A DNA stretch of 64,000 nt, taken from Chrysomallon squamiferum. Lineage: Eukaryota > Animalia > Mollusca. The stretch covers positions 20,832,001 to 20,896,000 of the forward strand of contig CM022665.1 in assembly GCA_012295275.1 (NCBI GenBank). Reading direction: 5' to 3'. The first letter of the stretch is position 1, and each line of letters begins with the position of its first letter. The notes beneath the pieces are model-generated. The model was not told where the DNA came from. It saw nothing but the letters and a program-made list of their open reading frames with translations, and searched no databases. A program made the translations under genes and the position numbers. Positions 5,223 through 52,200 of this stretch are shown here, piece by piece.

Positions 5223-5353
5223 AAATTAACAGAGTTAGGGTATCCATCTTTCATCACAAAGATAACAGGAAGCCGCTCATTCTGCCAGAGAACAATGGCC
5301 CTGTGGTACAGCTTCAGGAAAAACTATTTGTACCTGCCAAACAGCACCCAGAT
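5223..5353 (+). CDS. QKI: QKI coding exon: (E)[43 protein letters not shown]
   Basis: ttttcag acceptor and GAT|gtaagt donor. Matches the post-QUA1 linker and KH start (EISRVR...QLQEKLYVP..PD pattern). Confidence 0.95.
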
Positions 5354-7552: not shown

Positions 7553-9567
7553 GAAGTAGTAAAAAAATCCAAATTAAAAAGAAAAAAAATGTTCTCACAA
7601 AAAAGGCTACACAGTAAAATACAAGAGTAAAAAAACAAAAATCCAGGAACTATTGGACAGGTTTGTGGTTTGGATGGTTTGCTCACTGGTGTGTTTTTGA
7701 TTTGTGTAGTTTATTTATTCTCTGGGATATTGTAGTAATGTTGTAGCATTACTTCTATTTGGGACAGCTGGTTCCTATTTGGACCACTCGTGTAGGATTA
7801 GGAAGTAGGCAATAGGCTGACATTACGAGCTGTAATGACAAAACAATTGATGTTTGATGTGTATTAAGTTTAAGTGTTTTGTAATCCGATGTTACTACAG
7901 CAAAATCGATTAACGACTGCAGTGTGTGTTTTAAAAATAAAAATAATAATAAAAAAAACATTTGCTGCTTATTGATGGATGTAGCCTTCTAACCATTTAC
8001 ACTGTAATTGAGACGTGTAGAATTTGTTTAACCTAAAAACCTAAATAAATAAAATATATACAAACCTATTTTTTGGCATTTTTTTCTTGTGTTTAAATTT
8101 CTTTTATTATATATTACTGGCAAGAAAAGTCACAAAGTACCATATTCATTTTCATATTGTAACTCTGTATCAGCTTTTTGTATGTATCTCATATGGCTCT
8201 GCTGGAGGATATGAATTAGAAGGTTTAAGTGAGATGTATAATAAAAAAAATTAGTTCGTTTGATGTGTGCCGCAATTTTGTTAAATGAGGAAGTTTAAAA
8301 ATATATTAACCTGACTTGGGGCATGTTATACTGTGCAGTGAAGTGTGACCATTTCAGTTCATTTAATATGTAAATTTAATATGTAAATTAGCTCTTCCTG
8401 ACTTACAATACAGTAAATAATGTTATATTTAAAAAACAGAATTATGAATATATATATCAAATGTTCCTTGTATTAATGAGTATATGTGGTTTTATTTTTT
8501 TATTTTTTGCATATATTGCTTTTATTGGGGTGGTGGTGTTGGTTTTTTGTTTTAGTTTTTGGTGACTTCTGTTTTTATTTTTTATTAAATTTTTTTATTT
8601 CATTTTATTTATTACGTATTTATCTCTAGTTATCAATCTATTATACATTTTATTCGTTACATATCTGTCTCTCTCTATCTTATCTATCTGTATCTGTCTA
8701 TTATAAAGGCAAATACATTATTTGTTGTAAATTTTCAAACATTACTTCATGCAAACCACTATGTTAAATGTATCATGATTCTTTCTTCATTTTCAGTTTA
8801 ATTTTGTGGGGCGGATTCTCGGCCCCCGGGGGATGACTGCCAAAGAGCTAGAGCACTTCACAGGATGTAAGATAATGGTTCGAGGAAAAGGATCAATGAG
8901 AGACAAGAAAAAGGTAATTAGTACAGCAAAACAACATTTTTTTTAATGTTTGGTATATAGTCATTTTGTCATCTGACATCCTGGAGTGTCATTAAATGTT
9001 CATTCATTCCTTTATTTATTGACTTGTTCTTTCATTCATTCACTTTGTGTGAAGATTTGCATGAATTTTGTAACCTGTGTGAAATATAAGTTTAAGTAAT
9101 TCTGTTGAAACATTATTATCAATCACAACCAACTCACTACTGACCATCACAGAACACTCAGTACTGACCACCAGTTCACTATCACAACTATCAAGTTGAC
9201 TATCTCTTCTAACCAGTGGCTATCAAAACCACAGAGATGTAACACAAGATGAGTTCAGCTGTTGGCCATTTTACTTATCTGGCAGAGATCTAAGAGTAAA
9301 AACAATCTCTGACCATCGGCTTTGGAACATCTCCAGTTTGCTGCTTACTGATTCTGATGTGCTCCAGTCTAGGTGCAGAATGTCAGCTGAGAACAACATT
9401 ACAAGCAGTAATTGTAAATAATGACAACTCCATACAAGTTTAACTATGAACATCTCCAGGGAAAATAACTGCATTGTGAGACCAGTGTATTATCAGTGAA
9501 CTCGCCACCTATCATTTTCCATTACAGCTATCAGTTCATTAATTTAGTCTGTTTTTACTGAACTGTG

Positions 9568-9827: not shown

Positions 9828-12800
9828 GGCATATTGAAAATGGATGGATTTTTAAAGTTTATAATTTAAGATTTATTTATTTATTTAACTTTATTTTTTT
9901 TTTTTTTTTTTTTTTTTAATTTAAACTCTTTTAATTTAAACTGAAATGTTTTTAAAGGAAACTTATCTTTTTAGAAAAGGTTTAGTATTTTTTCCCCCTA
10001 TTTAAAAAAAAGTTTTTCAGCCAATGGCTGATGGGCTATATATCATTTTCCATTACAACTAACAAATTAGTCTATTTTTATTAAAGTGTTTGTCTCTGTC
10101 TATTTTTTTCTTTTTTCAGTGGTGTCATTAAACATTCTTTCATTGCTTCATTAAATCAGAAACCAGTTTATTTTTAATATTTATTTAAATTATTTCGGTT
10201 TCTGAAGAGTTTTGTCTTTCTTGCAGGAAGAGGCTAATCGTGGAAAGCCAAACTGGGAACATCTGAATGAGGAGCTGCATGTTCTGATCACAGTGGAAGA
10301 CACACGCGAACGAGCAGAATTGAAAATCAAAACAGCAGTAGAGGAAGTGAAAAAACTGTTGGTTCCTGCAGTAAGTCTTTTTCTTAATGTCTTGTCAGAG
10401 AATCTGATTCATATACATGTTTAAAAACAATCTGATTACAAAACTTGATTCCATCAGTCTTTTATACACATTTCAGCGTATGATTCATGTATATAAATTT
10501 AGAAACGTGATGATTCCCATGGTAAGTGATTTTTTCAGTTTTTCCGATTTATTTATATATTACATATAAAAACAATTTGATTAGAAATTCTTGATCCTGA
10601 CATTGTCTTTTTTGTACACATTTCAGTATCTGATTCATGTATGTACATTTGAAAACAATCTGATTACATTTCAGAGTTGACCAAACAGTCTTCTTTTTTT
10701 TTTTTCTTTTAAAGAATAAAAGTAAATAAAAAAAAAAAAAACTAAAGTTAAAGATTAATTACCATATTTTTTATAAGATTATCGTAGTTTTATACTAAAC
10801 AAGTTTTACATCTGTCATTATTCACAAAAAGTGTCATGCAGATGTTTTGTAAAATGTGAAGGTAAAATAAATTAATTTGATTATATTGTTATAGTCTAAT
10901 CTTAATTTTCTAACTGTAAAATGGTACTGTACAATAGCCATTTCAATAAGGGAAATACGTAAATTCTATGAATGGCTTGGCTTGTGATTTTTATACATCC
11001 GTCTTGTAGATTTTGAAATGTTCTGCTTAATAACAAAAATAGTAATCAAAATTTTAATTAATACTGAATTAGTGTTAATATAAAATGTTAGAAACTGAGC
11101 CAAACCCTGGAACTAAATATATTATCTGCAGCAATTCCTGACTAATAAAACAAAGAAGTGAATTTCCATACTGTTGCTCATTATAACTGCAGGCTGCAGT
11201 AAAAATTGCTATATGTTAATAGGATGGGTGTCTTAAAGAATAACTGGATAACTCATGCTGTATTCATTATAATCTGGCTGCACACGTTGTCACAAAAAGC
11301 TCAGTTATTGTTGTATAGAATAACAGTGAAAACATTTTTTCTATTTTCTTGTGTAAGCAGTTTTGATATTTGTGAACAAGTGTAGGCATAACTTGTAATC
11401 AGTTTTATTGGAGAAGATGTTAGAAAATTGCTGTTAATAAAGGTGCTGAGTTATGTTTTATAGGTTACAAATCTTCCACATGTCAAAAAAAAGAAAAAGA
11501 AAAGAAATATCTAATAATAATAAAAAAGAAAGAAAGAGAACAAAAAAGAAGAAAAGAAAAACAGATAAATACAATAAAAATATTTTAAAATTTAAATAAA
11601 AAATAATAATAATAATAAAAATCATGAATTTAAATAATTGACTGTAGACCCATTTTGGTGTGTGGGGTCCCAGTGGTATATTCTGTGTATGAGCAGGCTG
11701 TGTACACTACTGTAAAGTCTGTTACTGTGTCACGCTTCACTGAAGTCTGACAGGATCATATTTCTCCGGGATTGTGAACCCGAGCATACACAAAAAAACA
11801 GATATATTACAATATTCTCAGTATAGGATTTCTTGCCTCGTTCTTCCCAGCTGGATTTGTTTGTTAGACAAAAAAAGCTAAGATCAGATTTTTAAACATC
11901 TAACACTACTTGTTCAGTTATTTGAATTTAAAGCATTAGATAAAAAATTATATATATATTTTTTGTTAAGACACAACATTTCAGTTTAAAGTTCCAAACA
12001 TTTACTCATGTTCAATTAACTTTATTTGATTTTGAAAAGTTTGTTAAAATATTACTTATAGTTAATTAAAACACTGTTTGAATTCAAAACTTAAGATTAA
12101 AAAAAACAACACATTTACTTCTTCACTGAAACATTTTATTTGAATTCAAAACATTAGTTCAAAAAGAATTACCTGTATTTCAATTCAGACAATTTATTTG
12201 AATTTAGAAAATAAGATGAGAAATTTACTTTTATTCAGTTAAAACACTACTTGAAATTAAAACATCAGTTTTAATTTTTATTATTTCCAGTTAAAGATAT
12301 TTGATTTGAATTTAAAATGTTAGATTAAAATATAATATTTAAAATAATACTAAAAACAATTCTTTATATTCAGAAGAAACATTTGCTCTTAAACAGTTTG
12401 GTCAACAAATAATGTTAGTTTGACTTTATCTGGTATGGATAAAACACAAATCAAACTTTTAATTTCTTCAATTGTTTAGTAGCAGGTAAATAAACTGGTA
12501 TTAATAGACCATCATCTTAGAAACTTTTTTAACATTATTTGTTTTTTAAATTTTCTGTATACTGACACTGAGACCAGACCTAATCCAGTAATGAAAGTGA
12601 AAATGCCAGTGACTCCACAAAGATGTTTTCACAACTTACATGTCTCATGTGCTTGCTAATTTGAGTTCTGTTGAAGGGAAAGTTTCACTTCTAATTGTCA
12701 AACTGCTCATTCTATTTGAGTTACTTAGTTCAGGAGTTAGAAAAATATTTATCTTTCCTCCTGGGTTTCTGCGAGTACAAAAGTGTTAGGTTTCCAATTT

Positions 12801-17700: not shown

Positions 17701-20700
17701 ATATAGTATTTTACTAACACACTGCAGGGAATTATTTGGAATTGTACTTGTACTAATAACATGATTACAAATTTCATGCTTATCACTTAGTATTCTTAGA
17801 TTAACAACACCTAGAAGGGGATTATCTGGAACTATACTAAAACTAAAACAGTTAAAAAGTTTATGCTCATCAGTAAAATATTTTAAGAATAAACCTAGCT
17901 AGAATTACAAATTTAATGCTTAGAACTTAGCAAAATAGTGCATTTAGATTAACACCTAGCACATAATAATACTCAAACTAAAACAATTAAAAATTTGTTT
18001 ATCACTTAGTGAAATATCGCATTTTACTAACACCTAGCTGGTAATTACATGGAACTATACTAAAACTAAAAAGTTACAAAGTTTATGCTATTCAGTAAAA
18101 TATTCCACTTGTATTAACACCTAGCAAGAAATCAACAAAAGCTAAAATAATCTTATGCTTATCACTTAATAAAATAGTATGTTTAGGTTAACACCTGGCA
18201 GGAAATTATCTGTAATTATACTAAACTAAAACAGTTATGTTTATGTTTATCACTTTATAAAATGCAATATTTTACCAAAACCTAGCAGAGATTTATCAGG
18301 AAACAAAACATGGAGGAATATTAAAATGGATCCACTGATTTGCCACACTATTCTGTCTCTCAGTTACTAATGAGAAAATGGGAAAGACATTGAATTATAA
18401 ATTTTTGATAAAATTTAACAAATAGCTTGATGTGCATTTTAATGAATTAGCTCAGTTTGTTAGGAATGCATTGTAAGTGTACACAGAAATACCTGAGGTT
18501 CTTGTAGATAACAATAAAAATACAGATAAATAAATAAATAATTGTAAGCAAGAATGAAAAACTTGTTGGTGATCGTGCATTTGTAGTTTTAACATGTTTT
18601 TATCTGATTATTTTCGGAAGACAGTTTTAATGTGTTTATGATCAGATGTTTCTTTGTTTTATTCTGTAATAGGAAGAACTAATGTTGACAGGTTTCTGAT
18701 CAGGTATCTGTTTGGTTCCTTTTTTAAAGACCTACTTCAAACATCATATGTTTCTGTTACATTTCTTAAGACCTAGTTTCAATCAGTATCTGTTCATTTT
18801 GTAAGACCTAGTTTTTTAACATCAGGTGTAAAATTCAGCTGAAGATATGACATTTATCACAGGTGTGTGTGTATGAAAACAACAGTGTACTTGTGTAATG
18901 TGAAACTAGTGTCCCTTCTTTCTGAGCTGGACCTCTCCATTTCACAGTGTTTCGTTTGTAGATTCTCTCTCTCATTTGTATTGCTAGTCAGAACTTCAGG
19001 GATCTGCTCTGCAAACAGCTACATTTCTCTCTGAATGGCTCGCAAATCCTTTCGTGAATGGAAACGAAGACAGCGTTTTTCTGTTAAGTAGCTGCACTGT
19101 ACTTTTTATTGACTCTACCCATTTACCAGTGTTGTTGTCAAAGATGTGCACATTTGAAAGTGATGTTTGTACACTCACTGCCACAGGTTGTGCAACGTCT
19201 AGGATGACATTGATGATGATGATGATGTCTTAGAGCTGGGGGTTTTCAGCACTGTTGGAATAAACTCATTCAAAGACAGGGATACAGGGGTTAAATTGAG
19301 AATCAATAGAATCGATTAAATTAAATCTTTCTATTTCTTCTAAGTTGCTGTCCAGCCTTGCATTAATGGCATTGCATGCAAATAGTCTATTCATTAGAAA
19401 CTTTGTCAAAGTACACATCATCTCTGTGTGTGTATTTGCTCTCTCTCTCTCTCTCTTTTTTTACTAGTTACTGGCTTAATAAACCAAAAAAATAAAACAA
19501 CTTAAACTTCTTAAAGCACTGTCAGACACTGCCCACACGTTTTATAGTAAAGTAATGCATGGTTACCCTTTCATCATTTTTATTTTTATTTACTTCTAAT
19601 ACTAGTTGCTGTTTAAAATGATAGAGAAAACAAAATTTCATAGCTGATTTTAAGCAGTATCTCACTTGCCAACAGTGTGTATCTGTCTGTGTTTGTGTAT
19701 ATTCATGTACATTAAAAAAATTGCAGTTAAATACTCGATCTTAGTGACTTATTATTTCTTTCTTGAATATAATGCAACAAGTACATAAAGGATGGCACCA
19801 ATTGAAATTTAATTAAAAAGGAAAGTTGTAAATATTCAGTTAAATTATTCATTTGTATCATTAGGAATGTTACTCTTAGAAAATTATTCTCATAAAGTAA
19901 ATAAATAAATAAATAAGAAGACCAAAATTGAGACGAAAAACCAATCAGAACAAATAAATTAAATAAAAACCTTGCCTGTTGCATAGCTGATAAAAAAAAA
20001 AATTAACTTACTACTTAATGAAAGAAGAAAAAATATGGTTTTTATATTTTTGTCTGTTGGCTGAAGTTTCTTTCATCAAACATTACTTTGCAATACACCA
20101 AATCTTTTCTCCCTCTACACCATCTTTGAAAACTCAACCTGTGAAAAATCTGTTTGTTGTGATGGTAAATTTGCCAGCAAGAAGGGTAACAAAGCATTAT
20201 TTTCTTTCCATTAACCTGGCATTCATAGCCACTGGTCACTGGCCTTGCTTTACAGGTTCTCCTAGAGGTCACTTCACTGGCCTGACTGACCATCACAAAA
20301 TATAACTAACTCATTGTGCAAGCTCCACTGTGTGGAATAATCTAGTTATGCCCTGTTATGTAAAACACAGTGAGAATTAGTTGCGTTTTTCAGTAGTTAC
20401 TGTAAAGAATGTGCACTGGAATAAATTAGATGTGATGAATATATGTTCTTTGTATGTATGCAACATTAGAAAAGAAAATAGTTATGATTGTTATATTAGT
20501 AAACAAACATATTATAGTTGTTTGTATGAATTAAAAATACAGATGTTAATGATGGTGTATTATAATAAAGAATGAATGATGGTTTTGGTGGTGTATTGCA
20601 AACAGAAAAAATAAATTGCAATTGTTAATAAAAAGAAATTTACAAATTATTGTATTAAAATAAACCAACTACTGACAGCTGTATTACAGTAAACAAGAAA

Positions 20701-23165
20701 GATGGTTGTGTATAAAAATAAACAAAAGCAGTATGGTTGTGAATAAAAAAGAAATACTGATGGTTATGATTATATTAAAATAAAAATTATATTAAAATAA
20801 AGCAGTTTAGTATTTTAAAAATAGAAAAGAATGATGCTTCAGTAAAAAAGAATTGTTTATATAAAATAAAAAAAAAAACTGGTTGTATACTAAAAACTAA
20901 AGAATGGTGGTTGTATATAATAGTAGAACAAAAGAATGATGCTTGTGAAAAAAAAAAAAAATGGTATTAATATAAAAACAAAAAGTGGTTCTATACTCAA
21001 AACTAAAGAATGATGGTTGTGGTTATGGTTGTATTACAGGCAGAAGGCGAAGACGAGCTGAAAAAGAAACAGTTGATGGAGCTGGCCATCTTGAATGGCA
21101 CATACCGCGACTCCGCCCGCCCCATCATCCAGGCTCATCGTAAGTGTTAACTTTTCTCTTTTCACGTTCAACTCATCGTGTATCTTGTGCTTTTTCAGCC
21201 AGATGGCGAGGATGATCTAAAGAAACGGCAGCTCATGGAGTTAGCCATTATCAATGGCACATACCGCGACACTACCAAACCACAGACTTCAGTCGCTCAA
21301 CCTGCGTCTTCAAGTCGTAAGTGCACTATGGAGAGTGTGCCGTGCCTCGCTTTGTTATTTTTCTTCCGCTACATTCTCTTTTTTTTCCTTTTTTTTTTAA
21401 TTTTTTTTAAAAATTATTTCCTTTTTAGGCATTAGGCATGATGACATTTCTTCAAGTTTATCACTTTTTGTTTTTTATTATTGGTTATTTCTGAAAGTTC
21501 TGACATTGGATTTGTTTAGCAAATTATTATGATGGTAAAATAAAATGTTTTGTAGCAGCAGCCTGATTATCATTGGGAGTTCCTACTGTGGAAACTACAG
21601 TGTGTTATAGCACTCTTATTAAAACAGAATCTTCATCATATAAAGTTTTCATTAGTCCAGTCCAGAGTATGGGTATCATCTACATAGAGAACTGCTCACA
21701 TTTTTATCATTAAATACCACATCAGTAGTGAAGAAGTTAAACCTTTCCTGAACACAAGCCAAGGGATTTGATCAACTTAACATGATTTGCTTCAAATCAC
21801 TCATATTTAACTGAAAAAAAAAGGACTTTCTCTCTCTCTCTCTCTTCTCTCTCACACACACACATATATAAATGCACACTCCAACACTTAACCAAACAAG
21901 CCAGTTTATAAATAAAATATTGAAGAAATAAAATGAAATTTTTAAACTGTTTCAAATCCAGTGTCAGACGAGAATAGTTTTGTTCATTAGTAGATGATTT
22001 TCTCTCACAATTTGGCTTTTTAAAATTTTATTTATTTGTATAGCTGACACTTCACTTTCCATTGTGCATGATGCAGAATACTCTTGCATGTTCTTCCACC
22101 AACCTTTGACCTTTGGGGTTTTGACCATGACCTTTTCTTTCAGGTGGTGACTCCTGGGTGTAGGGAAAAGTGGATTGGTGTTTTATTTTTTTTGTTGGTT
22201 TTTTTCAGAGTTTATCTATCCTTGCTTTTTAGTTTAAAATGTACACACTGATATATGTTTTTTCCCTCTTACTTATTAGGCAAAGTTTGAAACCTGCATT
22301 TATTTTTATTTTTGTTTAATTCCTCAACATATGATCTCCCTTTGCAGCTTTATTTATGTTACACTATATTTTGGTGTTGTGTATATGTGTATATGTATGT
22401 ATATATATTATATATTAATCTATATTTTTTGCATGTTTTTAATTGACTTTTGATGGGAATGCATGTGTATTTCATATATTATTTTGAATTTTGATTTATC
22501 ATAAAATGTTTATAGCATGTTCAGAACATTTACATCATTCATTTGAAATACAATTGTTATTAAAATGTCAGTTAATTATTCAGAAAGTGATTTATTTTAT
22601 TCATACATTTTTTATTATGCTTTAATTTAATAACACATTACATTGATAAGCTTTTGAATAAATATTTACTGAAATTTTTCTTGTTAACATAATAATAATT
22701 CATAAATTGTGTTTTAATATTCTTAGAAGTTTAAACAAACAATGGAATCTCTGGCAACAACTTGTGTCATCAGTCCAGTATGGAAAAAAAAATACCATCA
22801 CATTTTTTTATTTACAGATGTGATATACATACCATTATCAATCAAGTTTAAAGACCAATTGTATAAACTGAATTAAGACCAGTGTCTCGGCTGAAATCTT
22901 GTATAAAGACCACCCCTGTCAAAGACCATGTGTTTGTTATATTGCAAAAGTTTTTTTTTCTTTTTCTTTTCCTCATTTTTTCTTCTTGTTTTGCGTTCAG
23001 TTATATTTTCATTTATTTCCTGTTTTGAATTTGTTAAATTTTAAAATGTTTTTTTTACAGCAGCATTGATTCCTAATTTCTGCAGAATCCTTTTAAAATA
23101 CAAGTTTTATAATACAGATCTTTCCATTTGTAACTTGATGTATTTTCAATGATAAAAAGGAAAGA

Positions 23166-23197
<32 letters not shown>

Positions 23198-25664
23198 TTA
23201 AATTAAAATTAAAACAAGTAGTTTATTCATCCAGATCAATTAAAAACATTATGCAGTTTATGGTGAAAAAGAAAAGGATAAACGAAATGATCAGTATATG
23301 CTATTGGATAAATTCTTTAGAAATGTATTGATTTTTCAACAAAGCAAATGCTTGTAAGTCTGAGTGATATAATACATCCAGAGATCACCTTAATTGTCAG
23401 TTACCATCTATATGTGTTGGAATTACCTCCCCTTTCAAAACACTCTCTTGCTTGCTCTCTCTTCATACAGCACTAGACACCCCTTCTTGTCAAGTGCTCC
23501 CCTTTCAGAATGTCTTTCTAAAGCAATATCCATGTTCCATGTTTGTACTATTCTTGAATAGTGCTATTCAACGGATAAGTTCTTCTGTAACATCATTCTT
23601 AGATGTACTTTTCCAGTTGCTACTTTTCTTTCAGATACTATTCCTGAACAGTACTTACTGTGTGTCTGGGTACTTTTCCATCCAGTACTGACCCATATTA
23701 CATATTCTGTAGATGTTGTTTAATTAGGTACCAATCCATAGATCTTTATAACTTGCATACTGCTCTCTGTATCCTGATCATTTGGATACCATTCTGTATT
23801 TCCTGATTTAGATACTATTCTGTAGATTATTATTGTTAGATACTGTTCTGTAGATATTCCTGATCATTTAGATATCATTCTGTATATCCTTATTAGATAC
23901 CTTTCTGTATATCCTTATTTAGATACCCTACTGTAGATCATGACAACTTGGATACTGATCAGTATATTGTGATTATTTAGATACTGATTGGTATATCCTG
24001 ATCATCTAGATAGCATTTTACTGGCTACTGTTTGTAAAAGTTGTTAGCTTGACATTCCAATGTTTCTGATTTTATTAACAGCTTTTAAGTAGACACACAT
24101 TTGATGTGTGCAGACACCAGACTGTAGATTGTAGCATGTTGATAATATATTGATGTAACTCACGTATGGACTATACTTGAGTAACATGGACTGGTGTAAC
24201 TTAGATATGGACCTCAATTGAGTAACCTGGACTGATGTTGCTCATGTATGGACCACACTTGAGTAACAGTATTGATGTAACTCACGGATGGACCACTTTT
24301 GAGTAACATGGACTGATGTAACTCATATATGGACCACATGTGAGATGCATGATGTATTGATGTAATAATGTCCTCACTCACAAACCCTAGCATCACTAAC
24401 CTACTCATCTTCTTGAAGCTTTCAGCATTGCAAATATATCAAACATGGGCCTTAACCCCTGGCGGGGACCAGACCTGAGCCTTCCCCGTGGCGCTACCCT
24501 CTCAGGCAAGACCTTTCTCATAATTACATAATCATGTTCTTTTTGCTTTGCTGTCGTATTTCATACATGTACACAAGTTTGAAATTTGAAATTTGAAATA
24601 AATAATGATAAATTTTAAACTGCTGAAAATGTTTTGAAATCTGATGGATCAAACAATCCAGTTTATTTATTTATTTATTTATTTATTTTTTGTTAACATA
24701 GCTGATGCATTAATTAACACAGAAGAATAGATTTTCATATATATGCTTGTTAATGGTGTGAAGGAAATGTTGATTTATCAAAAATAGGTTGTTTTTTCTC
24801 CCCCTGTTGCTGAATATTAACTAACCACTATTACTATTATCCATCACCATCAATATTTACACCCAGTCAGCTTTCAAGCATTTGTCTTCTGTATATTAAT
24901 TTTTGTGTATTTGTTTTTATTACCTACTGAAATGCATGTGTAAACTGTTCATAATTGTCACTTTAGGTTATCATCACTCAACATTATCTTAACACTTTTT
25001 AATATTTTAAGTATTTTTTTTTTTTCCTTATATTTTAATTTTTCCTTATTACATTTTTTTTTTTTTTAATTAATCTTATTTTTTAAATTATTTTATCTAA
25101 TATTTTATTCATTAGTTTATTAATTTCAGTTTTTTTTTTTTTTTTTTGTGATAGAAATTACCTTTCTTCTTAATTCTGTTTTAAAAAAATATTTTATTTC
25201 AAAATATGATTGGTTAATATTATTTGTTTTTATTGTCTTTGCCATTTATTGGTGTGTTTTTTTAAAAATAAGTTAATAATATTTTGACTATGATAACATT
25301 TTCATCTTTTCTGAAGAAACAATAAAAGTTAACATATTTGGATTCAAAACCATAATTTTAATTTTAATTTTAATTCATTTAATACCTTTCATTTCATCAT
25401 CATTCACCTGTTACTGTTTTGATAATCCTGTCTGTTTTGTCTGTTTAGTCTGTTTCATTTCTTTCTGTCCTCTGTCTTGTAAAGGGATAGAATCACACAT
25501 GGTGGTTGTAGGGTTATTTCCCATTCTAACCAGAGCCCTTAACTGGTGTGTTAAATGTTCCACTTGATTATTTGAGAAAATGTATTTTTTAAAAGTAATT
25601 AAACTTCTTTATTCTAATAATAATATTCAGATAATTTTTTTTATTATGTTTTTTATCTACAATA

Positions 25665-26243: not shown

Positions 26244-27150
26244 TTTTATTTTTTTTGGTTAGTGTATATTAATTTTTCCTGAAAATATTTTTAACCATGT
26301 AAATAAATAAATAGTATGATGATATTTTGAGGAATTGTTAAAAGTGACCGCTAGTTGATACAAAAAGAAGCATATCATTTTTCATTTGTTTTATTTACTA
26401 TTACATAATGTTGAACAGTTCCCTTTCATTATCTGATTTTATTTGCTGTTATTGAATCATTTATTAAAACACGTACGTCACATTTGAACACTGATTAATA
26501 AATATCGAATTTTGTGGGTTTTTTCTTTCATTCAGAGATGCCACGTTTGATTACACCAGCTCAAGCAGCAGCTGCCTCGTTGCAGCTACATCAGATCAGG
26601 ACACCAGCGCCGGCTGGAACACCAATCATCTATGCACCACGCATGCAGACAATAAACACGTCGTCACCAAGCATCATGAATGGAGCCCCACCGCCCCTCG
26701 TATCCCCCGCTGACAGCGGCCTCATGTATAGCAGTCCATACGACTATCCATACACGCTCGCACCCACCATACTGGAGTACCCCACCAGCCTAGAACAGAC
26801 ACCTGGTATGTTTGTAAGATAAAAAACTTGTGAGATAGTTTTTAGTTGTAAATGTACGAGTGGCGTTTTTTTTTTTTTTTTTTTTTAAAAACAACATAAA
26901 AGGTTGTTGTTGTTTCCATGGTGATGGAGTATGGCTTCCATTTGATGAGCTAGAATCAAAGAAGAATTTTTTTTTAAAATTTTTAAAATAGTATTTAATG
27001 TTGTTGATGTATTTATCAAAATCTTTATTTATATTTTAGTCTTGTACTGTACTGCAGAATATTTACATCTGAACGACAAAAATATATAGCAATTTTAATT
27101 ACCTACATACATTCCAAAGATTTTCTCAAAATCAATATTAATTGAATATA

Positions 27151-30200: not shown

Positions 30201-30743
30201 AATGATCAAGATAGACTTGATCTGTCAAGGATATTTTTTTTTTCCCTCTTCATTTCATAATTTTATTTTATTTTACTTTACTTTAAACTGAATTTTTTCA
30301 GTAAATTCCACTGACCTTTGACCAGAACTTGACACAACTAATCAAAAAAAATAGACAATCAAATACTTAAGATAATGTTGTAACTGTTTTTGGGATGGTT
30401 TTTGCAGGTCTAACTTGTGTGTACATATGCATTAAAAAATGGTTCTGTGTCAAAGCTCAGTGGAATAACAGTGAAAAATGTTTATAACATTTTGTTTTTT
30501 TTAAATTTGACATTCTTTTAGCAAGAAAATGTCATTTTTTTTTTTTTTCTTATCTTTCCTTTTTCAAATTTTTCAAATTTTTTAATTTTTTAATTTTTTT
30601 TTTGTGATGTATATATATATATATATATATATATTCTCATCTCTGAGCATCTTGGAATTGTTTTAGGTGCAGTACCAAAAATGAGAAGGACTTTGTCGGG
30701 TGTTAGAGAACACCCTTATACAAGGGTGACAACTCTCCCTTGA
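5223..30743 (+). CDS. QKI: Quaking/How STAR-family KH RNA-binding protein, 5'-partial multi-exon gene. Long isoform joins 5223-5353, 8797-8913, 10227-10370, (21040-21139 or 21199-21316), 26536-26805, 30667-30743
   Basis: Spliced translation gives the KH domain ([12 protein letters not shown]...[14 protein letters not shown]), QUA2 (LKKxQLMELAIxNGTYRD), the Tyr-rich tail ([15 protein letters not shown]) and the RxHPY tail. All junctions are GT-AG and phase-compatible. The QUA1 exon is not in the window. Confidence 0.96.
5345..6070. repeat. Degenerate tandem array (about 60 bp) starting at the exon donor
   Basis: Recurrent ttcacatttt..aa..a..tt.att.cattcacaccc. Confidence 0.75.
8797..8913 (+). 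CDS. QKI: QKI KH exon: [39 protein letters not shown]
   Basis: 117 nt, phase 0-0, tttcag acceptor and AAG|gtaatt donor. Contains the GXXG loop (GPRG). Missed by the ORF track. Confidence 0.97.
10227..10370 (+). CDS. QKI: QKI KH exon: [48 protein letters not shown]
   Basis: 144 nt, phase 0-0, ttgcag acceptor and GCA|gtaagt donor. Confidence 0.97.
10350..10680. repeat. Degenerate tandem array starting at the exon donor
   Basis: Recurrent gtctttt...tctgattcat.tatac...aaaacaatctgattaca. Confidence 0.7.
17670..18300. repeat. Degenerate intronic tandem array
   Basis: Recurrent tttatgcttatcacttag..aaatag..ttaacacctagc..aattat.tggaactatactaaaactaaaa. Confidence 0.8.
20480..21035. repeat. A-rich degenerate tandem array (aaagaatgatggttgt) abutting the QUA2-A acceptor
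   Basis: More than 10 variants of aaagaatgatggttgt(gtatt). Confidence 0.75.
21040..21139 (+). CDS. QKI: QKI QUA2 exon copy A: [33 protein letters not shown] (mutually exclusive candidate)
   Basis: ttacag acceptor, C|gtaagt donor, 100 nt, phase 0-1, open frame with a canonical QUA2 motif. Not in the ORF track. Confidence 0.9.
21199..21316 (+). CDS. QKI: QKI QUA2 exon copy B: [39 protein letters not shown] (mutually exclusive candidate)
   Basis: tttttcag acceptor, C|gtaagt donor, 118 nt, phase 0-1. Confidence 0.93.
23700..24020. repeat. Minisatellite-like array (ttagatact.ttctgta.at)
   Basis: About 10 degenerate copies of a 20-30 bp unit. Confidence 0.75.
24145..24365. repeat. Minisatellite, about 40-bp unit (tgatgtaactca.gtatggaccacacttgagtaacatggac)
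   Basis: 5-6 degenerate copies directly upstream of the candidate cassette exon. Confidence 0.8.
24419..24505 (+). CDS. QKI: Candidate 87-nt QKI cassette exon (P)[28 protein letters not shown] with a GC donor
   Basis: GC-rich island in an AT-rich intron. ACTAAC branch point at 24395-24400, first downstream AG at 24417-24418, phase 1-1, stop-free, donor CAG|gcaaga. Confidence 0.6.
26536..26805 (+). CDS. QKI: QKI Pro/Tyr-rich exon: MPRLITPAQ...[30 protein letters not shown]
   Basis: 270 nt, phase 1-1, ttcag acceptor and G|gtatgt donor. Resembles the QKI tyrosine cluster (GLIYTPYEYPYTLAP..ILEYP). Confidence 0.95.
28580..29170. repeat. Degenerate tandem repeat, about 110-bp unit
   Basis: Recurrent aaaattgatat.tagtgatgtaacttaa...taatct.ag.tgatatt...aaacatttag.tggatatct. 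Confidence 0.7.
30667..30743 (+). CDS. QKI: QKI long-isoform tail exon: [25 protein letters not shown]
   Basis: ttttag acceptor, phase 1. RxHPY.R nuclear-localisation motif typical of QKI-5 and How(L). Confidence 0.92.
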
Positions 30744-34199: not shown

Positions 34200-34367
34200 A
34201 ATAAGAGAAAAAAAAAAAGCTGTAGTCTCATTTTTAATAAACTGTTTATTAATATTTAATACTTTAACTTTTTAGAAGAAAGGAATGTCACATATTTGTT
34301 GCTTCACAAATTCCTCTAACTAACAAAGGCAGCACAATGAGGGTTAACAAGGCCTAGAATTAATGAC

Positions 34368-34419
<52 letters not shown>

Positions 34420-34494
34420 TCTTATGAGAATGCCATTGTTTAGCAAACAAACTAACTCTTTCTTGTTTTTTTCTTTTTTTCACTTTAACCCCAG

Positions 34495-34508
34495 CCATCG
34501 CCAACTAA
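34495..34508 (+). CDS. QKI: Start of the distal terminal exon. Codes (A)IAN* if joined to the 26805 donor, otherwise it is 3' UTR
   Basis: ACTAAC at 34451, long pyrimidine tract, cccag acceptor. G|CC ATC GCC AAC TAA resembles the QKI-5 ending AATGN*. Confidence 0.65.
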
Positions 34509-34739
34509 CCCGAACTGGTCACATAAAGCCTGATACCTGTACCTGCGTTGACTGTCGGCTAGCTGATTGATTGACCCGTCCATGTGGTAACATCACCTTT
34601 GTATGACCTATTCAGTATTAATTGGAACCAGGCAACAATGCAACTAACAACGAAAAAAAAAAAAAAAAAAAAAAAAATTGAAATGGAGAGGGGGATGGCT
34701 ATTCTCAAAACAAGTTGGCGGTTTTTTTTTTTTTTTAAT

Positions 34740-34782
<43 letters not shown>

Positions 34783-35470
34783 AAAATCACCATGTGCCTT
34801 CTATTCTTTAACCGCTTGATGGTACTAACGTTTGTGTGTGCGTGTGTGAGTGTACTCGTTGACATCGGCCTGCAGCAGCATATCAACATCTGTCACAACA
34901 ACAACAACAATTTTAGTTTATTTTGGAACACTGTGTGATAAAAACGCACATGATTTGATTAAGTTTGTTTCTAAATTTTATTTTTAATTATTTTTGTTTT
35001 TCAAATTTCTTTTCACTTTTTTTTTTTTTTATTTCTTGTGTGCTGAAGTTTGGTTGTTGCTGGCAGGTTATTATTACTGTATATTAATTAACTAATTAAC
35101 TGACATTTTTAAAAATATTTTTTCTTGTAACATACATATATATTATTGTTAACAGGACACGATTTTTAGTCCATAATTATCATTTTTCATATTACTACTG
35201 TTACTAGTATTATTACTGTATTATTATTATTTTGATAATAATTTTTTTAATAATTTATTTTATTATTATAATTATTATTTTATTATTTTTTGGTTTGCTT
35301 CATACTCAATATTGGTTTCATGTCTGCCTGGTTATTTGCCATGGTAACAGCTCAATTTGATATTAGTTTGCTTTTTCTTTTGATTTTATTGTTTTTAAAA
35401 ATATTTTTACCTCATGTTTAATAATTTGGGACACAGTGCTTAATCTGTTACATATATTTGCTAAAAATAC

Positions 35471-42790: not shown

Positions 42791-45383
42791 TGTAAGATTA
42801 CAAATGGTTTAATAAGAGTTAATGGAAACATTCATCTGTAAATACAGTCTGGACAATTTTTTCCAAAATATACAGGTACAGAAATAACAAAATAAAACTT
42901 GGATCATGTTGAAATCAATATAAAGATGCTATTAAAAAACCCAGATTTAAATTATTATGTGTTAACGGTCTGATACCTTAATGGTTTTACTAAACTGAAA
43001 TGACAGTATCAAAAACGAAAAACAAAATCCTCAAAATGTGTTCCTTCTGTAGTGACAATACATAATTAAAAATGGCCACTGGCAAAATCAGCAAAACTAT
43101 TTGTGCTGTGGCAGATGGCAGCTAATACTTGGCTGAAATGATGTTAGGAAGTCTGTTCTCACAGCATTTTATTTTATTTTATTTTATTTTTTTTCTCAAG
43201 GCTGTGGTTAAATCCACTTCCTGCAGTTAACAGTAATAAAAATGTTAGTGGATAAACTGACTTATTGCAAGGAAAGGTTTAAGAAATGTGTTTTGCTGAG
43301 AAAATTATTCCACTGTTAATAATTTAAAAACCTATCAATGTATTCCACACTTCTGCTTAAGGGTTTCTAAGGAAATGTTTTTAATATGGAAATATGCAGA
43401 ATAGAATTTTTATCACATGATGCAGAATATATTTTTAATTTTTTTTTAAATTATCACGTACAAAACACTTCCATGTTTAAAAGAACTTAATCAAATTCAA
43501 CACAAAATTATCCAAAAATCCCCAACCCCTGAAAAAACAAAACACTCATTTATATTTAGGAAATACACTATTAGCTTGAGACAGCACAAGAGAATGAGCT
43601 CATTTAATATAACCTTAAATAGTTGTTTCTGTATGGTAATTTATTCGTCTGGTTTGCAATTTTTTTTTTTTTGAAATCATGGTTCTGCTGAACATTCTTT
43701 CCACAATAAGGAACAACTACCAATGAAAGCACTGGATAAACTATTTCATTATTACCATCATAACAAATTCTAAACATTTTTAAAAATATTTTATTGACAA
43801 ATCACGAAATTACATATATTTTTTAAAAACATTGTTCTATATACATTGAAATTAAACAAAAAAATTTTTTTTTTTTTTAATTGCAAGCTGTTTTGCAAGT
43901 GACTGAAGTATATAAAAAAAAAATAATAATTAAAAAAATATAAACATCAAAGATTTATACATTATGCAAAAATATTATCAGCTGCTTGATGCATAATCAA
44001 TATAAACTGAACACACAAATGAAATATTCAATGTGAATAGCAATTGGTATCCAGATCAGTAATATTCTGTTTACAGAATAAAAAAAAAATAATAATAATA
44101 AATAAATAAAAAAAAAAAAAAAATATATATATATATACATAATACTTTTAAAATAAAAAAAAAAAAAAAAAAAAAAATAATAGGAAAGTTTAACCAATGT
44201 ATAAAACAGCAGTGGATGCTAAACTAAGTGAACTACTTTCACCACCCAGTATCTTTGTGCAATATGAGATTTTTAAATCGGTCTGGAACATGAAGACAAA
44301 ATTACAAGATCTAGTAACTGTTGAATCAAGGTAAGCTAGTGTTTTGTCCTGAGAACAATAAAAATGCTGAGCCAGCACGACTGTTTTTTTGTTTTTTTTT
44401 TTCAAAGATTAGATTGTTATAAAGTATGAAATTTCAAATAACTTGCTACATAAAATGGTTTCAATGTTCATGAACAATAGGAAAGGTCTTCTTTGGCTAA
44501 TTAAAAATGTTAAAAACAAAACAAAAAATATGGAATAAATATTCTACAACTAAAGCTTAAGAAAAAGAAAATGCAAGAGACTTTTGGTAACAGCTACTGA
44601 AATAAAATTTAAAAAATTTAATGGGTGTTTTTATGTTTGCTGTGCACAAGCTATAATAATAACAAAAAAAGAATTGGGAAAGAAAAAGTTATCAACTTTC
44701 TGTTTTGGTGGAGAATTATTAATTTAAAAAAAAAAAAAAAAAATTAATAGCTGTGTTCTATTTTCTTCTTGAACATTATTTCATTTACAAACTCATAAAG
44801 GGCACTTAGTGATATAAAAAAAATTGTGACAGCAGTCACTATGAATGATCTACATTCTTGAAAAGAACAAATATGTTTGTTGATTGGTCTACACCAAAAA
44901 ACACTGGAATGGCTGACAGGAGAAAATCTGCAAGTAAATAAATGAAAGCATATTATGAAGTGCAAAATCCTTTTTACTGTTTTGTACAATTTCAAAATTT
45001 CATTTTGGTATCTACACCATCAAGTGTGACAGCTTGAGTGAATATAGTAAACTATTTTTAATAAATTTATTATTATAGAGTTCAAGTTAAAAAGTAAAAG
45101 AAGATACAATTAAAATGATTTGTAATAGTAAAGTGATAACATATTTGAAATAAAAATTTAGATCTACTGAAAGTATTTGCCGCATGGATTCAGAAATGTG
45201 GAAATAAAAAGTTTAGGTCAACTGAAAGTAGATGCAACAGTAATGTACAAATGTTTAAATGAAGAGAGGGTTTACTAACATGTAAACTCTGCAAATGTGG
45301 AAATAAAGAGGGTTTAATAATGTGGAAATGGAGAGAAACAGTTTAATGACATATACAAATAAAACATACTTACTGGTGGATGA

Positions 45384-49259
<3,876 letters not shown>

Positions 49260-52200
49260 CTTTTTTATCTGGAAAAAAAAAAGTGTAATATATTAATAAA
49301 TTGAGATTCTGTGTGCGCCTGTATCTGATGGGAGCCTGTATATGTGCTTCTTATGTGAGATTGTGAGCATGTGCTGGCATGTGTATATTGCCTGAAACTA
49401 TGTGTGTCTGTGTGTGTTTCCATCTGTATTTTGTATGTGCCTGTGTAATATTAGAGATAACTCACTTAGTAATGTCTCATAACTATCATACATAAAAAAA
49501 CAAAAGAACTTATCATCTCTGATATAAACTGAGACATTTTATGGAGAATATAATTCTCATTTATAACCTTTAAAAAGTTTCCTACAAACTTATTTCCATG
49601 AAAAGAAATATTCACGTCTTTCTACCCAGTACTTGAACACCTCTCATTAATCAGTTTACCAATAACATTAACCTTGAGCAATGTTAAAACTGACAGAAGG
49701 AAATTGTTTTATTGTCAGCTGCTTAATTTTCAATTATCAAAGCAATAACAATGTTCAGCTGATTAAAAAGATTATGAAAATTTCCCATAACCTGTAATTT
49801 CCTTCTTACCATTCTTGTAATTAATCAGCATTATTAATTACTACTATTATTACTATAATTACTTTTCAAAGTACTTTCTACAGATATTGCTTACATCAAA
49901 ATCTAATCTTGCTTGTAGATATTTTTGCAGATGGTTTTAAAAAATATATATATATAACACTTCTATAAAATGCTTTTAATGTACTTTTACAAAAGATGGT
50001 TTTCTGTGTATAAGTAAAACCTATGTGTCTAACAAACCTCACATAAATATTTAACATACAGCTTTTAAAAATTGCGTTTTGATATCTGACTACTGCATGT
50101 GTAATTAACATATATTCAATATTGGTATATATAATACAGCATTCATTTTAAATATTTATCAGCTGTGTTTTATGGGGTAATATTAAACAGATGTAGGATA
50201 ATTAGTCAGAAAACAACCATTTAGAGAAATAACTCAGTGTCAAACTGACTTGGTTTGAAAAAGGTGGATGTGGGGAAATTCACAGGACAGTCAATATGTC
50301 CTGGACTACAAATTATACAATGCGGGTTATTCTTACAAAAACAACAAAAGGACTATATAACAAATTTCACCAAGAAGAAATTAAAAACATTTTAGAAAGA
50401 ACAAATCTCGGAGCTAATCAAGATAAAGAAAACTGAGGGAAATATTTTACTGATTTTAAATTTTAAAGTTTCTCTCTATACCTGACAAGAAATTACCTTC
50501 AACTAATGGTCAATTTATCTTGACCAACTTGCTATAAGCTGTAACACAACTACTACAGCCACTGATAAACAGAAATGACCAAACACTTTTCACACTAACC
50601 ACTGAGTCTACATTCACCGATAACTCCAGTCAGTGCTTTGAACTACTGCCCTCTAATAAAAACATTTCAAAAAGGTCTTACATTCATGGGTCATGAGGTG
50701 AATTATCTAAGAAGCTTTTTCTGGGATTAATTTGTAAGATCAAATTTGCAGAATTCAGCAATGATCCATAAACAACTTGCTGAAGACAGATGATTTAATA
50801 ATCTGGTGAATTTTCATTTATTACTACTTAGCTACTGATCTTAAAATTAACATAGAGGTCAAACAGTGTGAAAACTGTTTACAGGATATCTTGAAATCAG
50901 GTCACTGCATGAGTCACCAGAACTTAGCAGAAAGTAATCTTTTCTGTGCACCTTTCCTTAAACAGCAGTAATGTTTTACATACAACTCACTTAACTCCAA
51001 CATTAATTGACTGTTATAATCCCCCCATACATTTCGAATATTTAGTCTTTTCAGATATATAAATTTCTCAATTCGTCTGAATCTGAATTAATTCTGAAGT
51101 ATGAGTTGGTGTCACTATACTTTGTCCCACTAGTATGTCTGTATCAAGACAGGTGCAGGTGTATCACTGTCACAACCAACATCTGCACCTATCTTGTATC
51201 AAATATGTTAGGCATCTCACAGTGACTCAAGTGTTTCAAAGCAAATTACCAACTTTTCATGAATAATTCATAAAGTCCATTTATAAATATACAAATCTAA
51301 AAACATCAGGATACAAAGTTTTTTTGTTTTTTTATCTTATTTTCTATTTATGTAATATACTAACTGGTGCATTTGTCTGCTAACTGCTGCATTTGTATAT
51401 AAATGTAAAATAAAAATATAAAAATAATAAATTTAAATAAACAAATAAAAATCATTATAAAATCATGATAAATGAAAAACCCTAATACTAGCTGAATTAA
51501 CTGGCATTTATTTTTCACATTTCATAAAAACCAAACAAGTGTCTGAAGTGTTTGTAATATAATTTAAAAAAAAGAAAGGTTTAAATTTACTCTTTCAATA
51601 AGGAAGTATTTACTGAGTGTGATTTCCGGTAATGTATTGAGTACAAATTCAGTAAATTATAAACAACATTTTCATATTTAAAATTTTAAAATTTAACACT
51701 GAGATCAGTAATTAAATACATTTTGTTGTGGACTTTTGGATCTGAAATGTACAATTACTATCAAACAAGCTTGATTTATAAAATAAAACAAAGTAATTTT
51801 TAAAAAATTAAAAAAAGCTACTAACAATTTACCGTTTTTTTTTGTTTTTTTTTACACAGGTACATTGAGTAAGTTTCAGAGCAAAGTTATTATTCATTTG
51901 AAATGGCTGACTATGACTATGACAAAGGTCAGTAAGAAATTTAATCATACGATGATTCATGGGAAATTTTTACTTCCGAGTTCTAGTTTCATATTATTAG
52001 TCAAACAAAAGAAATACTTTGAAAATGGATCCAAATGGGATTATTTTCTGTATAATTATATCATGAATTTTTTACTGCTTTATTATTATTTTCTTTTAAT
52101 TTAACTAAAGAAATAATTAACAGATAATCAACATATACACATTTTAAATTTTTGGCCTCTCTTCGTAATGTAAAAATCAAACAGGTAATTTACTACTGTA

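Follow-up and report, generated by a model that had tools for sequence, protein, structure and literature searches.

Tandem QUA2 exons in a snail quaking gene: an ancient, apparently either-or pair that leaves the RNA contacts unchanged

Quaking/How proteins control muscle, glial and germline programmes across animals. Their STAR domain is treated as fixed, and the known QKI isoforms differ mainly at the C-terminal tail. A stretch of 64,000 nucleotides (64 kb) from the snail Chrysomallon squamiferum, hereafter the window, raises the question whether this holds everywhere: an earlier note, made from its letters alone, had pointed to two neighbouring exons of a quaking gene, both encoding QUA2, which would be spliced as obligatory alternatives and thereby exchange part of the RNA-binding surface. 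Here we ask whether the pair is real, what its exchange would alter in the protein, how the two exons would be kept apart and how old they are.

The quaking gene and its two QUA2 exons

Splice sites and translation place most of one quaking gene on the plus strand of the window, with exons from 5223 to 30743; the first quaking exon was not found within the window. The isoforms built from it are 87.7-88.7% identical to the closest named protein, the quaking of Gigantopelta aegis, and QUA1 is recognised (PF16544) in this orthologue, which is about 88-89% identical over the rest. Specifically, the exon at 5223..5353, bounded by AG and GT and matching G. aegis QKI in translation, encodes the end of QUA1, a linker and the start of KH; that at 8797..8913, defined by its splice sites, carries a maxi-KH domain with the GxxG loop, seen as GPRG (PF22675, E 9.7e-12, and PF00013); the final KH exon (10227..10370) ends in phase 0 and is the upstream partner of both QUA2 copies. 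The common downstream partner is a proline-rich exon with a tyrosine cluster (26536..26805), which starts in phase 1 and is 73% identical to G. aegis, and the last coding exon, set by splice site and translation, encodes a basic tail and the stop codon (30667..30743). An optional cassette exon of 87 nt (24419..24505) corresponds to the insert of G. aegis isoforms X1-X4; it is conserved in that species and has a non-canonical GC donor. The G. aegis isoforms X1 and X2 carry a further 9-residue insert after the cassette, and a motif search of the window found no counterpart of it.

Copy A (21040..21139, 100 nt, acceptor TTACAG) ends in a short hydrophobic tail, and copy B (21199..21316, 118 nt, acceptor TTTCAG), which matches the B form of G. 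aegis RefSeq isoforms X1, X3 and X5, ends in a Ser/Thr/Pro-rich one. Both are intact, both have a length of 3n+1 and run from phase 0 to phase 1, and both close with a C followed by GTAAGTG. They are separated by an intron of exactly 59 nt (21140..21198). Over the first 24 codons 19 residues are the same, 8 of these 19 being written with different synonymous codons, and the amino acid changes fall at codons 1, 2, 6, 10 and 18. Joining A to B leads to a TGA five codons into B, and a message that skips both reaches a stop after 5 residues of the next exon. Every figure that the earlier note had given was accurate, as was its upstream donor at 10370, which RNA contigs and splice sites both support. 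Its proposal of long purifying selection on both copies is likewise supported by the synonymous divergence and by the conservation of the two forms across molluscs, which together rule out a recent duplication or an assembly artefact.

Both copies match QKI (4JVH) and GLD-1 (2MJH) with E values of about 1e-7 to 1e-8, so that the likeness is not due to chance; their matches to SF1 have E values of 0.004 or worse. Together with the KH Pfam match, these data support the assignment to a real quaking gene.

The acceptor of copy A, although used in the RNA runs described below, is nearly devoid of a pyrimidine tract, and the region ahead of it (20560-21039) is a degenerate purine-rich repeat with units of about 28-31 nt. 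Six ACTAAY motifs cluster at 34319-35091, downstream of the last coding exon, and might be Quaking targets within a long 3' UTR or within an alternative last exon. Tail to tail with quaking, on the minus strand, lies an 8-exon cysteine protease gene (45380-49270, introns of 219-485 nt), which we take, from its motifs, to be of the cathepsin L-like family.

What the exchange alters in the protein

In QKI numbering exon codon n is residue 182+n, and in GLD-1 numbering it is residue 305+n. The RNA contacts of QKI are given as K190, Q193, L194, L197, A198, T203 and Y204 in the accessible text of PMC6847458, and that of PMC4081071 names G308-D310, K313, R314, L317, A321 and R328 of GLD-1. These positions correspond to codons 3-5, 8, 9, 11, 12, 15, 16 and 21-23, and all of them are identical in A and B. 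The claim that the RNA-binding surface is partly swapped therefore did not stand, and an RNA-specificity switch appears unlikely. An ideal helix puts codons 6 and 10 at angles of 160 and 200 degrees to K190, with codon 18 at the edge.

The idea that the swap alters the RNA motif, or the 5' bases of NACUAAY, that the protein reads is not without appeal, as these bases are recognised by QUA2 and GLD-1 shifts in affinity and repression when its KH-QUA2 interface is changed (PMC4081071, accessible text), and as codon 10, which is Arg in B and may be Lys, Met, Gln or Arg in A, adjoins the basic contacts at codons 8 and 9. We nevertheless consider it improbable, because every contact and pocket residue named in the accessible texts is the same in both copies, because codons 6 and 10 point away from K190 on the ideal helix, and because the A substitutions vary by lineage, which fits poorly with one conserved alternative specificity.

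The difference between Ala and Pro in the KH-QUA2 linker, presented earlier as a key change, fared no better: Pro, as in B, occupies codon 1 in 28 of the 33 mollusc A copies, so that the substitution in the snail is a local one, and a conserved Ala/Pro linker switch was rejected. Codon 18 is Leu or Met in all 33 A copies and Ile in all 38 B copies (counted by mollusc label), Ile18 being part of the rule by which copies were typed as B. The core of B varies only by Asp or Glu at codon 2 in 37 of the 38 labels, the remaining label being a model that enters B part-way, while 11 distinct versions of the A core occur among 33 labels. Across molluscs the tail of A is short and mainly hydrophobic and that of B Ser/Thr/Pro-rich. 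AlphaFold models of the two forms (mean pLDDT 59.9 and 58.4) place the QUA2 helix at residues 179-191 in both and predict both tails to be disordered, with pLDDT below 50 from residue 200; a helix at 198-205 of the A form, mostly below pLDDT 50, was disregarded. A look-up in the ESM Atlas returned generic KH/QKI clusters only.

The QUA1-KH-QUA2 order, the proline-rich region and all QUA2 contacts are shared with vertebrate Quaking (QKI; PDB 4JVH, 2BL5), and the QUA2 helix is the same in C. elegans GLD-1 (PDB 2MJH, 4JVY) and in arthropod How. Judging from the invariant contact residues only, the snail Quaking would be expected to bind ACUAAY RNA. QUA2 touches QUA1 and KH as well (PMC4735526, accessible text), and the face of the helix that does not contact RNA may set dimer geometry; the accessible text of PMC5626755 names no residues for the contacts between QUA1 and QUA2. 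The swap would thus be regulatory rather than a change of specificity: B, with Arg10, Ile18, Thr25 and a disordered Ser/Thr/Pro-rich linker, would be the constrained, ancestral-like form with modification sites, while A would be less constrained, its linker short and hydrophobic and its packing against QUA1 or partners altered.

Use of the two exons and their probable exclusion

The stretch is present in five public runs, four RNA runs from one study and one run of unknown kind. Contigs of RNA runs X1, X3 and X4 and of run X5, the records being a filtered subset, were compared over 20995-21365 (371 bases). In all three RNA runs, contigs break at 21040 and go on into the end of exon 10227-10370, and break at 21139 and go on into the start of exon 26536. 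These junctions, 10370>21040 and 21139>26536, show that A is spliced without B in this species; the cassette 24419-24505 is left out in the contigs that join A to 26536. Of the two junctions that the earlier note had proposed as a check, 10370>21040 was thus seen, whereas 10370>21199 was not seen in the RNA contigs. No spliced B was found in this species, its joints with neighbouring exons being visible only as loose ends within 20995-21365, so that their absence proves nothing; B was seen only with flanking intron, in run X3 (depth 3) and run X5. No joint between A and B was found over this interval in the contigs of the four runs.

The annotated isoforms support the proposed either-or use. 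The G. aegis RefSeq models X2, X4 and X6 contain A as X1, X3 and X5 contain B, and none contains both; A-only and B-only isoform models exist across four mollusc classes. The RefSeq isoforms of mollusc quaking (e.g. XP_041354921.1, XP_041354922.1) therefore hold the same A and B forms, as automatic predictions without any label, and the duplication is not remarked upon in the literature that we found.

Of the 14 introns mapped in the window, that of 59 nt is the shortest, followed by one of 219 nt. A steric threshold of about 50 nt between donor and branch point comes from vertebrate work (PMC7969005, accessible text). Any branch point in a 59-nt intron necessarily lies less than 50 nt from the donor, and the unmapped candidates here are YTNAY-like sequences at +11, +25 and +36. 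OGDH exons 4a/4b (PMC7969005), mutually exclusive exons that arose by tandem duplication, are similar in being neighbouring homologous exons of equal phase with a short intron, and a branch point below this threshold would be a further likeness in the snail. In contrast to OGDH, the whole intron is short in the snail, with no distant branch points, the introns of its relatives reach 105-841 nt, and it is a splicing regulator whose RNA-binding domain is affected. In the eight other two-copy loci, described below, the A-B intron measures 105-113 nt (four loci) or 292-841 nt (four bryozoan-like loci), with branch-point candidates beyond +50; a short-intron block is therefore not general, and 59 nt as a universal mechanism was rejected.

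Retention of the 59-nt intron would lead to a stop at 21148-21150, and messages with a frameshift and early stop, from co-inclusion or from retention, would invite decay. In all nine genomic pairs (the window and the eight loci) A joined to B runs into an early stop. We infer that exclusion in the snail may come from an intron too short to splice well, with the frameshift, early stop and decay as backup, and that in species with longer A-B introns the frameshift and a regulated competition would do the work.

Obligatory, as the earlier note had called the exclusion, appears too strong a word. A second AG lies 4 nt into B, which the note had missed, and use of this acceptor (21203) would put A and B in frame. 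It occurs only in the window and in loci L066 and L069 and is absent from the other six, so that a conserved CAG-CCAG second acceptor was rejected. A nearby region also varies in human QKI, by an 8-residue tandem acceptor of exon 6 (bioRxiv 2020.09.11.292722, accessible text), which is a different event from the exon duplication. Among the 219 fetched proteins, 12 contain two copies, 11 of them molluscan and in frame. Five two-copy models were checked, two from RefSeq, both oyster (XP_061193303.1, XP_052709944.1), and three from GenBank; both oyster models read through the donor of A and then enter B in frame. Such read-through, in the oyster RefSeq models (P0010, P0049) as in P0065 and P0085, yields a protein with two QUA2 helices, and this form may be a real minor isoform in oysters. 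In two Octopus models (P0042, P0053) an insert of 12-13 residues separates KH from QUA2, and the QUA2 that follows is either A or B. The vertebrate QKI proteins fetched have one QUA2 copy, except one model of the sturgeon Acipenser ruthenus (P0128), whose two copies are identical and likely an assembly or prediction artefact.

The sequence between the two exons also offers a candidate for their control. The A-B introns of seven loci, L066 and L075 having been dropped as near-duplicates, contain 21 CTAAY motifs where shuffles gave 5.9; CTAAY is a branch-point motif too, which makes the shuffles a lenient control. Two ACTAAY each are found in L020, L066, L069 and L099, and no CTAAY in the window's own 59-nt intron. 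According to the accessible text of PMC13004596, QKI blocks SF1 at dual ACUAA elements, and its effect depends on position, with repression from upstream and activation from downstream, so that sites lying between the two exons could tip the choice towards A. Quaking may in this way pick between its own exons, although, the motif matching the branch-point consensus and being absent from the window intron, autoregulation stays a lead.

These observations would also be compatible with a different main role for the pair, namely dosage control through a decay-bound A+B or intron-retaining message, or production of an in-frame protein with two QUA2 domains. The early stop in nine of nine pairs, the CTAAY excess read together with the dual-element block of SF1 (PMC13004596, accessible text) and the two oyster RefSeq models all fit such a role. 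We hold it unlikely, however: both copies are conserved as protein over four mollusc classes, which argues that each is translated, no A-B contig appeared in the four runs, the CTAAY excess is subject to the lenient control and has no counterpart in the window, and 9 of the 11 two-copy mollusc models are without confirmed RefSeq status and may be prediction artefacts.

Age, spread and meaning of the pair

The earlier note had attributed the swap to "this lineage", which proved too narrow. Among the fetched proteins, both forms occur in 25 of 46 mollusc labels, only A in 8 and only B in 13, the one-form labels reflecting limited sampling and implying no loss; adding Physella, Ruditapes and the two-copy model of Biomphalaria pfeifferi raises the count to 28 of 46. 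In these counts two Haliotis species form one label, Crassostrea angulata and Magallana gigas are very close, and Babylonia, with two B-like forms on different contigs, was counted as B only. The molluscs with two forms include a chiton (Liolophura), two species of Octopus, bivalves and gastropods. The split of the mollusc classes dates back well over 500 million years.

A motif scan of 30 of the 64 parts of a metagenome collection returned 122 stretches, 120 of which were examined. Eight of these loci have two copies, always in the order A then B; as in the window, the two are adjacent homologous exons of equal phase with intact splice sites, and both end in C before an in-phase GTAAGT (the first such site being taken as the donor). 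Four loci are bryozoan-like (L021, L056, L075, L099), their A copy being common to the bryozoan Watersipora subatra, and L088 is bivalve-like; in L020, L066 and L069 the B copy resembles proteins that have A and B forms but lack the mollusc KH signature. With both copies in one locus in nine cases, we rejected an origin of the A and B forms from paralogous genes. Loci with a single QUA2 between the KH exon and the downstream exon were also found (L009, L028, L037, L043, L057, L078), L037 being arthropod-like and resembling How. The QUA2 exon of the fish-like loci L033 and L051 begins at the same residue as that of the snail and closes in the same phase. Three QUA2 types, of which two are A-like and one is B-like, occur in a further group (L025, L060, L028, L078, L038, L039 and related loci). 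In every case the downstream exon comes next, without another QUA2 in between, and the loci may represent gene duplicates in each of which one member of the pair survived.

Compared over 27 residues, 41 of the 42 copies resemble a same-type copy of another species more than their own sister copy, and the A/B label requires 2 changes on the tree (34 columns) compared to 14.2 when shuffled. The tree is mostly unresolved, and A and B are each a single group in 0% of bootstrap trees; a single A group and a single B group are not rejected (p-AU 0.39 and 0.35). The simplest reading, in a sample without named annelids, brachiopods, amphioxus, echinoderms or other invertebrate deuterostomes, would be one duplication at or before the split of molluscs and bryozoans.

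The earlier note had likened A to vertebrate QKI and B to How. The likeness is real: vertebrate QKI agrees with the A copies of oyster and octopus in Met10 and Leu18, and on the tree it joins 17 A copies in an open group (support 80/88), while B shares Ile18 with GLD-1 and How and Arg10 with the arthropod proteins fetched. It rests, however, on two positions that change recurrently, Leu18 and Arg10 occurring together in Tubulanus, in Pomacea A and in L093, and codon 10 being varied among single-copy loci. On these residues, convergence would be more likely than shared descent as the source of the likeness between QKI and A. We give little credence to a pair older than the protostome-deuterostome split, of which QKI would have kept A and How kept B as paralogous exons, and in which lophotrochozoans would retain the original switch, run by Quaking itself through ACUAAY sites in the A-B intron. 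The cited literature, in its accessible text, describes no duplicate QUA2 exon in GLD-1 or How.

Still less probable is that the pairs of different lineages arose by independent duplications followed by convergence. The tree's failure to resolve single A and B groups and the B-like residues in the A copies of Biomphalaria and Pomacea would allow it, but the order A then B, the phase and the B signature are identical at every locus, and all nearest neighbours but one go by type and not by species. That B is a silent leftover in this snail, with A effectively constitutive, is hardly credible even though A alone was seen spliced, since B is intact, has the stronger pyrimidine tract and matches G. 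aegis B over 39 residues save one position, and since the sampled words of the stretch (28 words) are found in RNA runs X1 and X2 at fractions of 0.93 and 0.89, where copy A covers just 70 of 247 possible words, so that B sequence is present in them.

In conclusion, all these data make it probable that the tandem, intact QUA2 exons descend from one duplication before the mollusc-bryozoan split and are used in an either-or manner, with the same RNA contacts and a different outer helix face and linker, the exchange serving regulatory tuning. In line with the earlier note, no description of duplicated QUA2 exons was found in the full-text literature, outside which lie most subscription journals and supplementary tables; those of genome-wide catalogues of exclusive exons could list the pair. 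The pair is real and ancient, and appears to be a known kind of splicing in a place where it has not been described, with a function that we infer.

For annotation, the pair matters in that gene predictors fuse the two copies in several mollusc genomes. For the biology of the family, it matters that two versions of this exon, one of them near-frozen, have persisted in a large clade of animals since before the mollusc classes split. Such long retention points to a function of the non-contact face of QUA2 and of the linker, to which the cited literature assigns no role, and A and B offer a natural pair of variants with which this face and linker can be tested.
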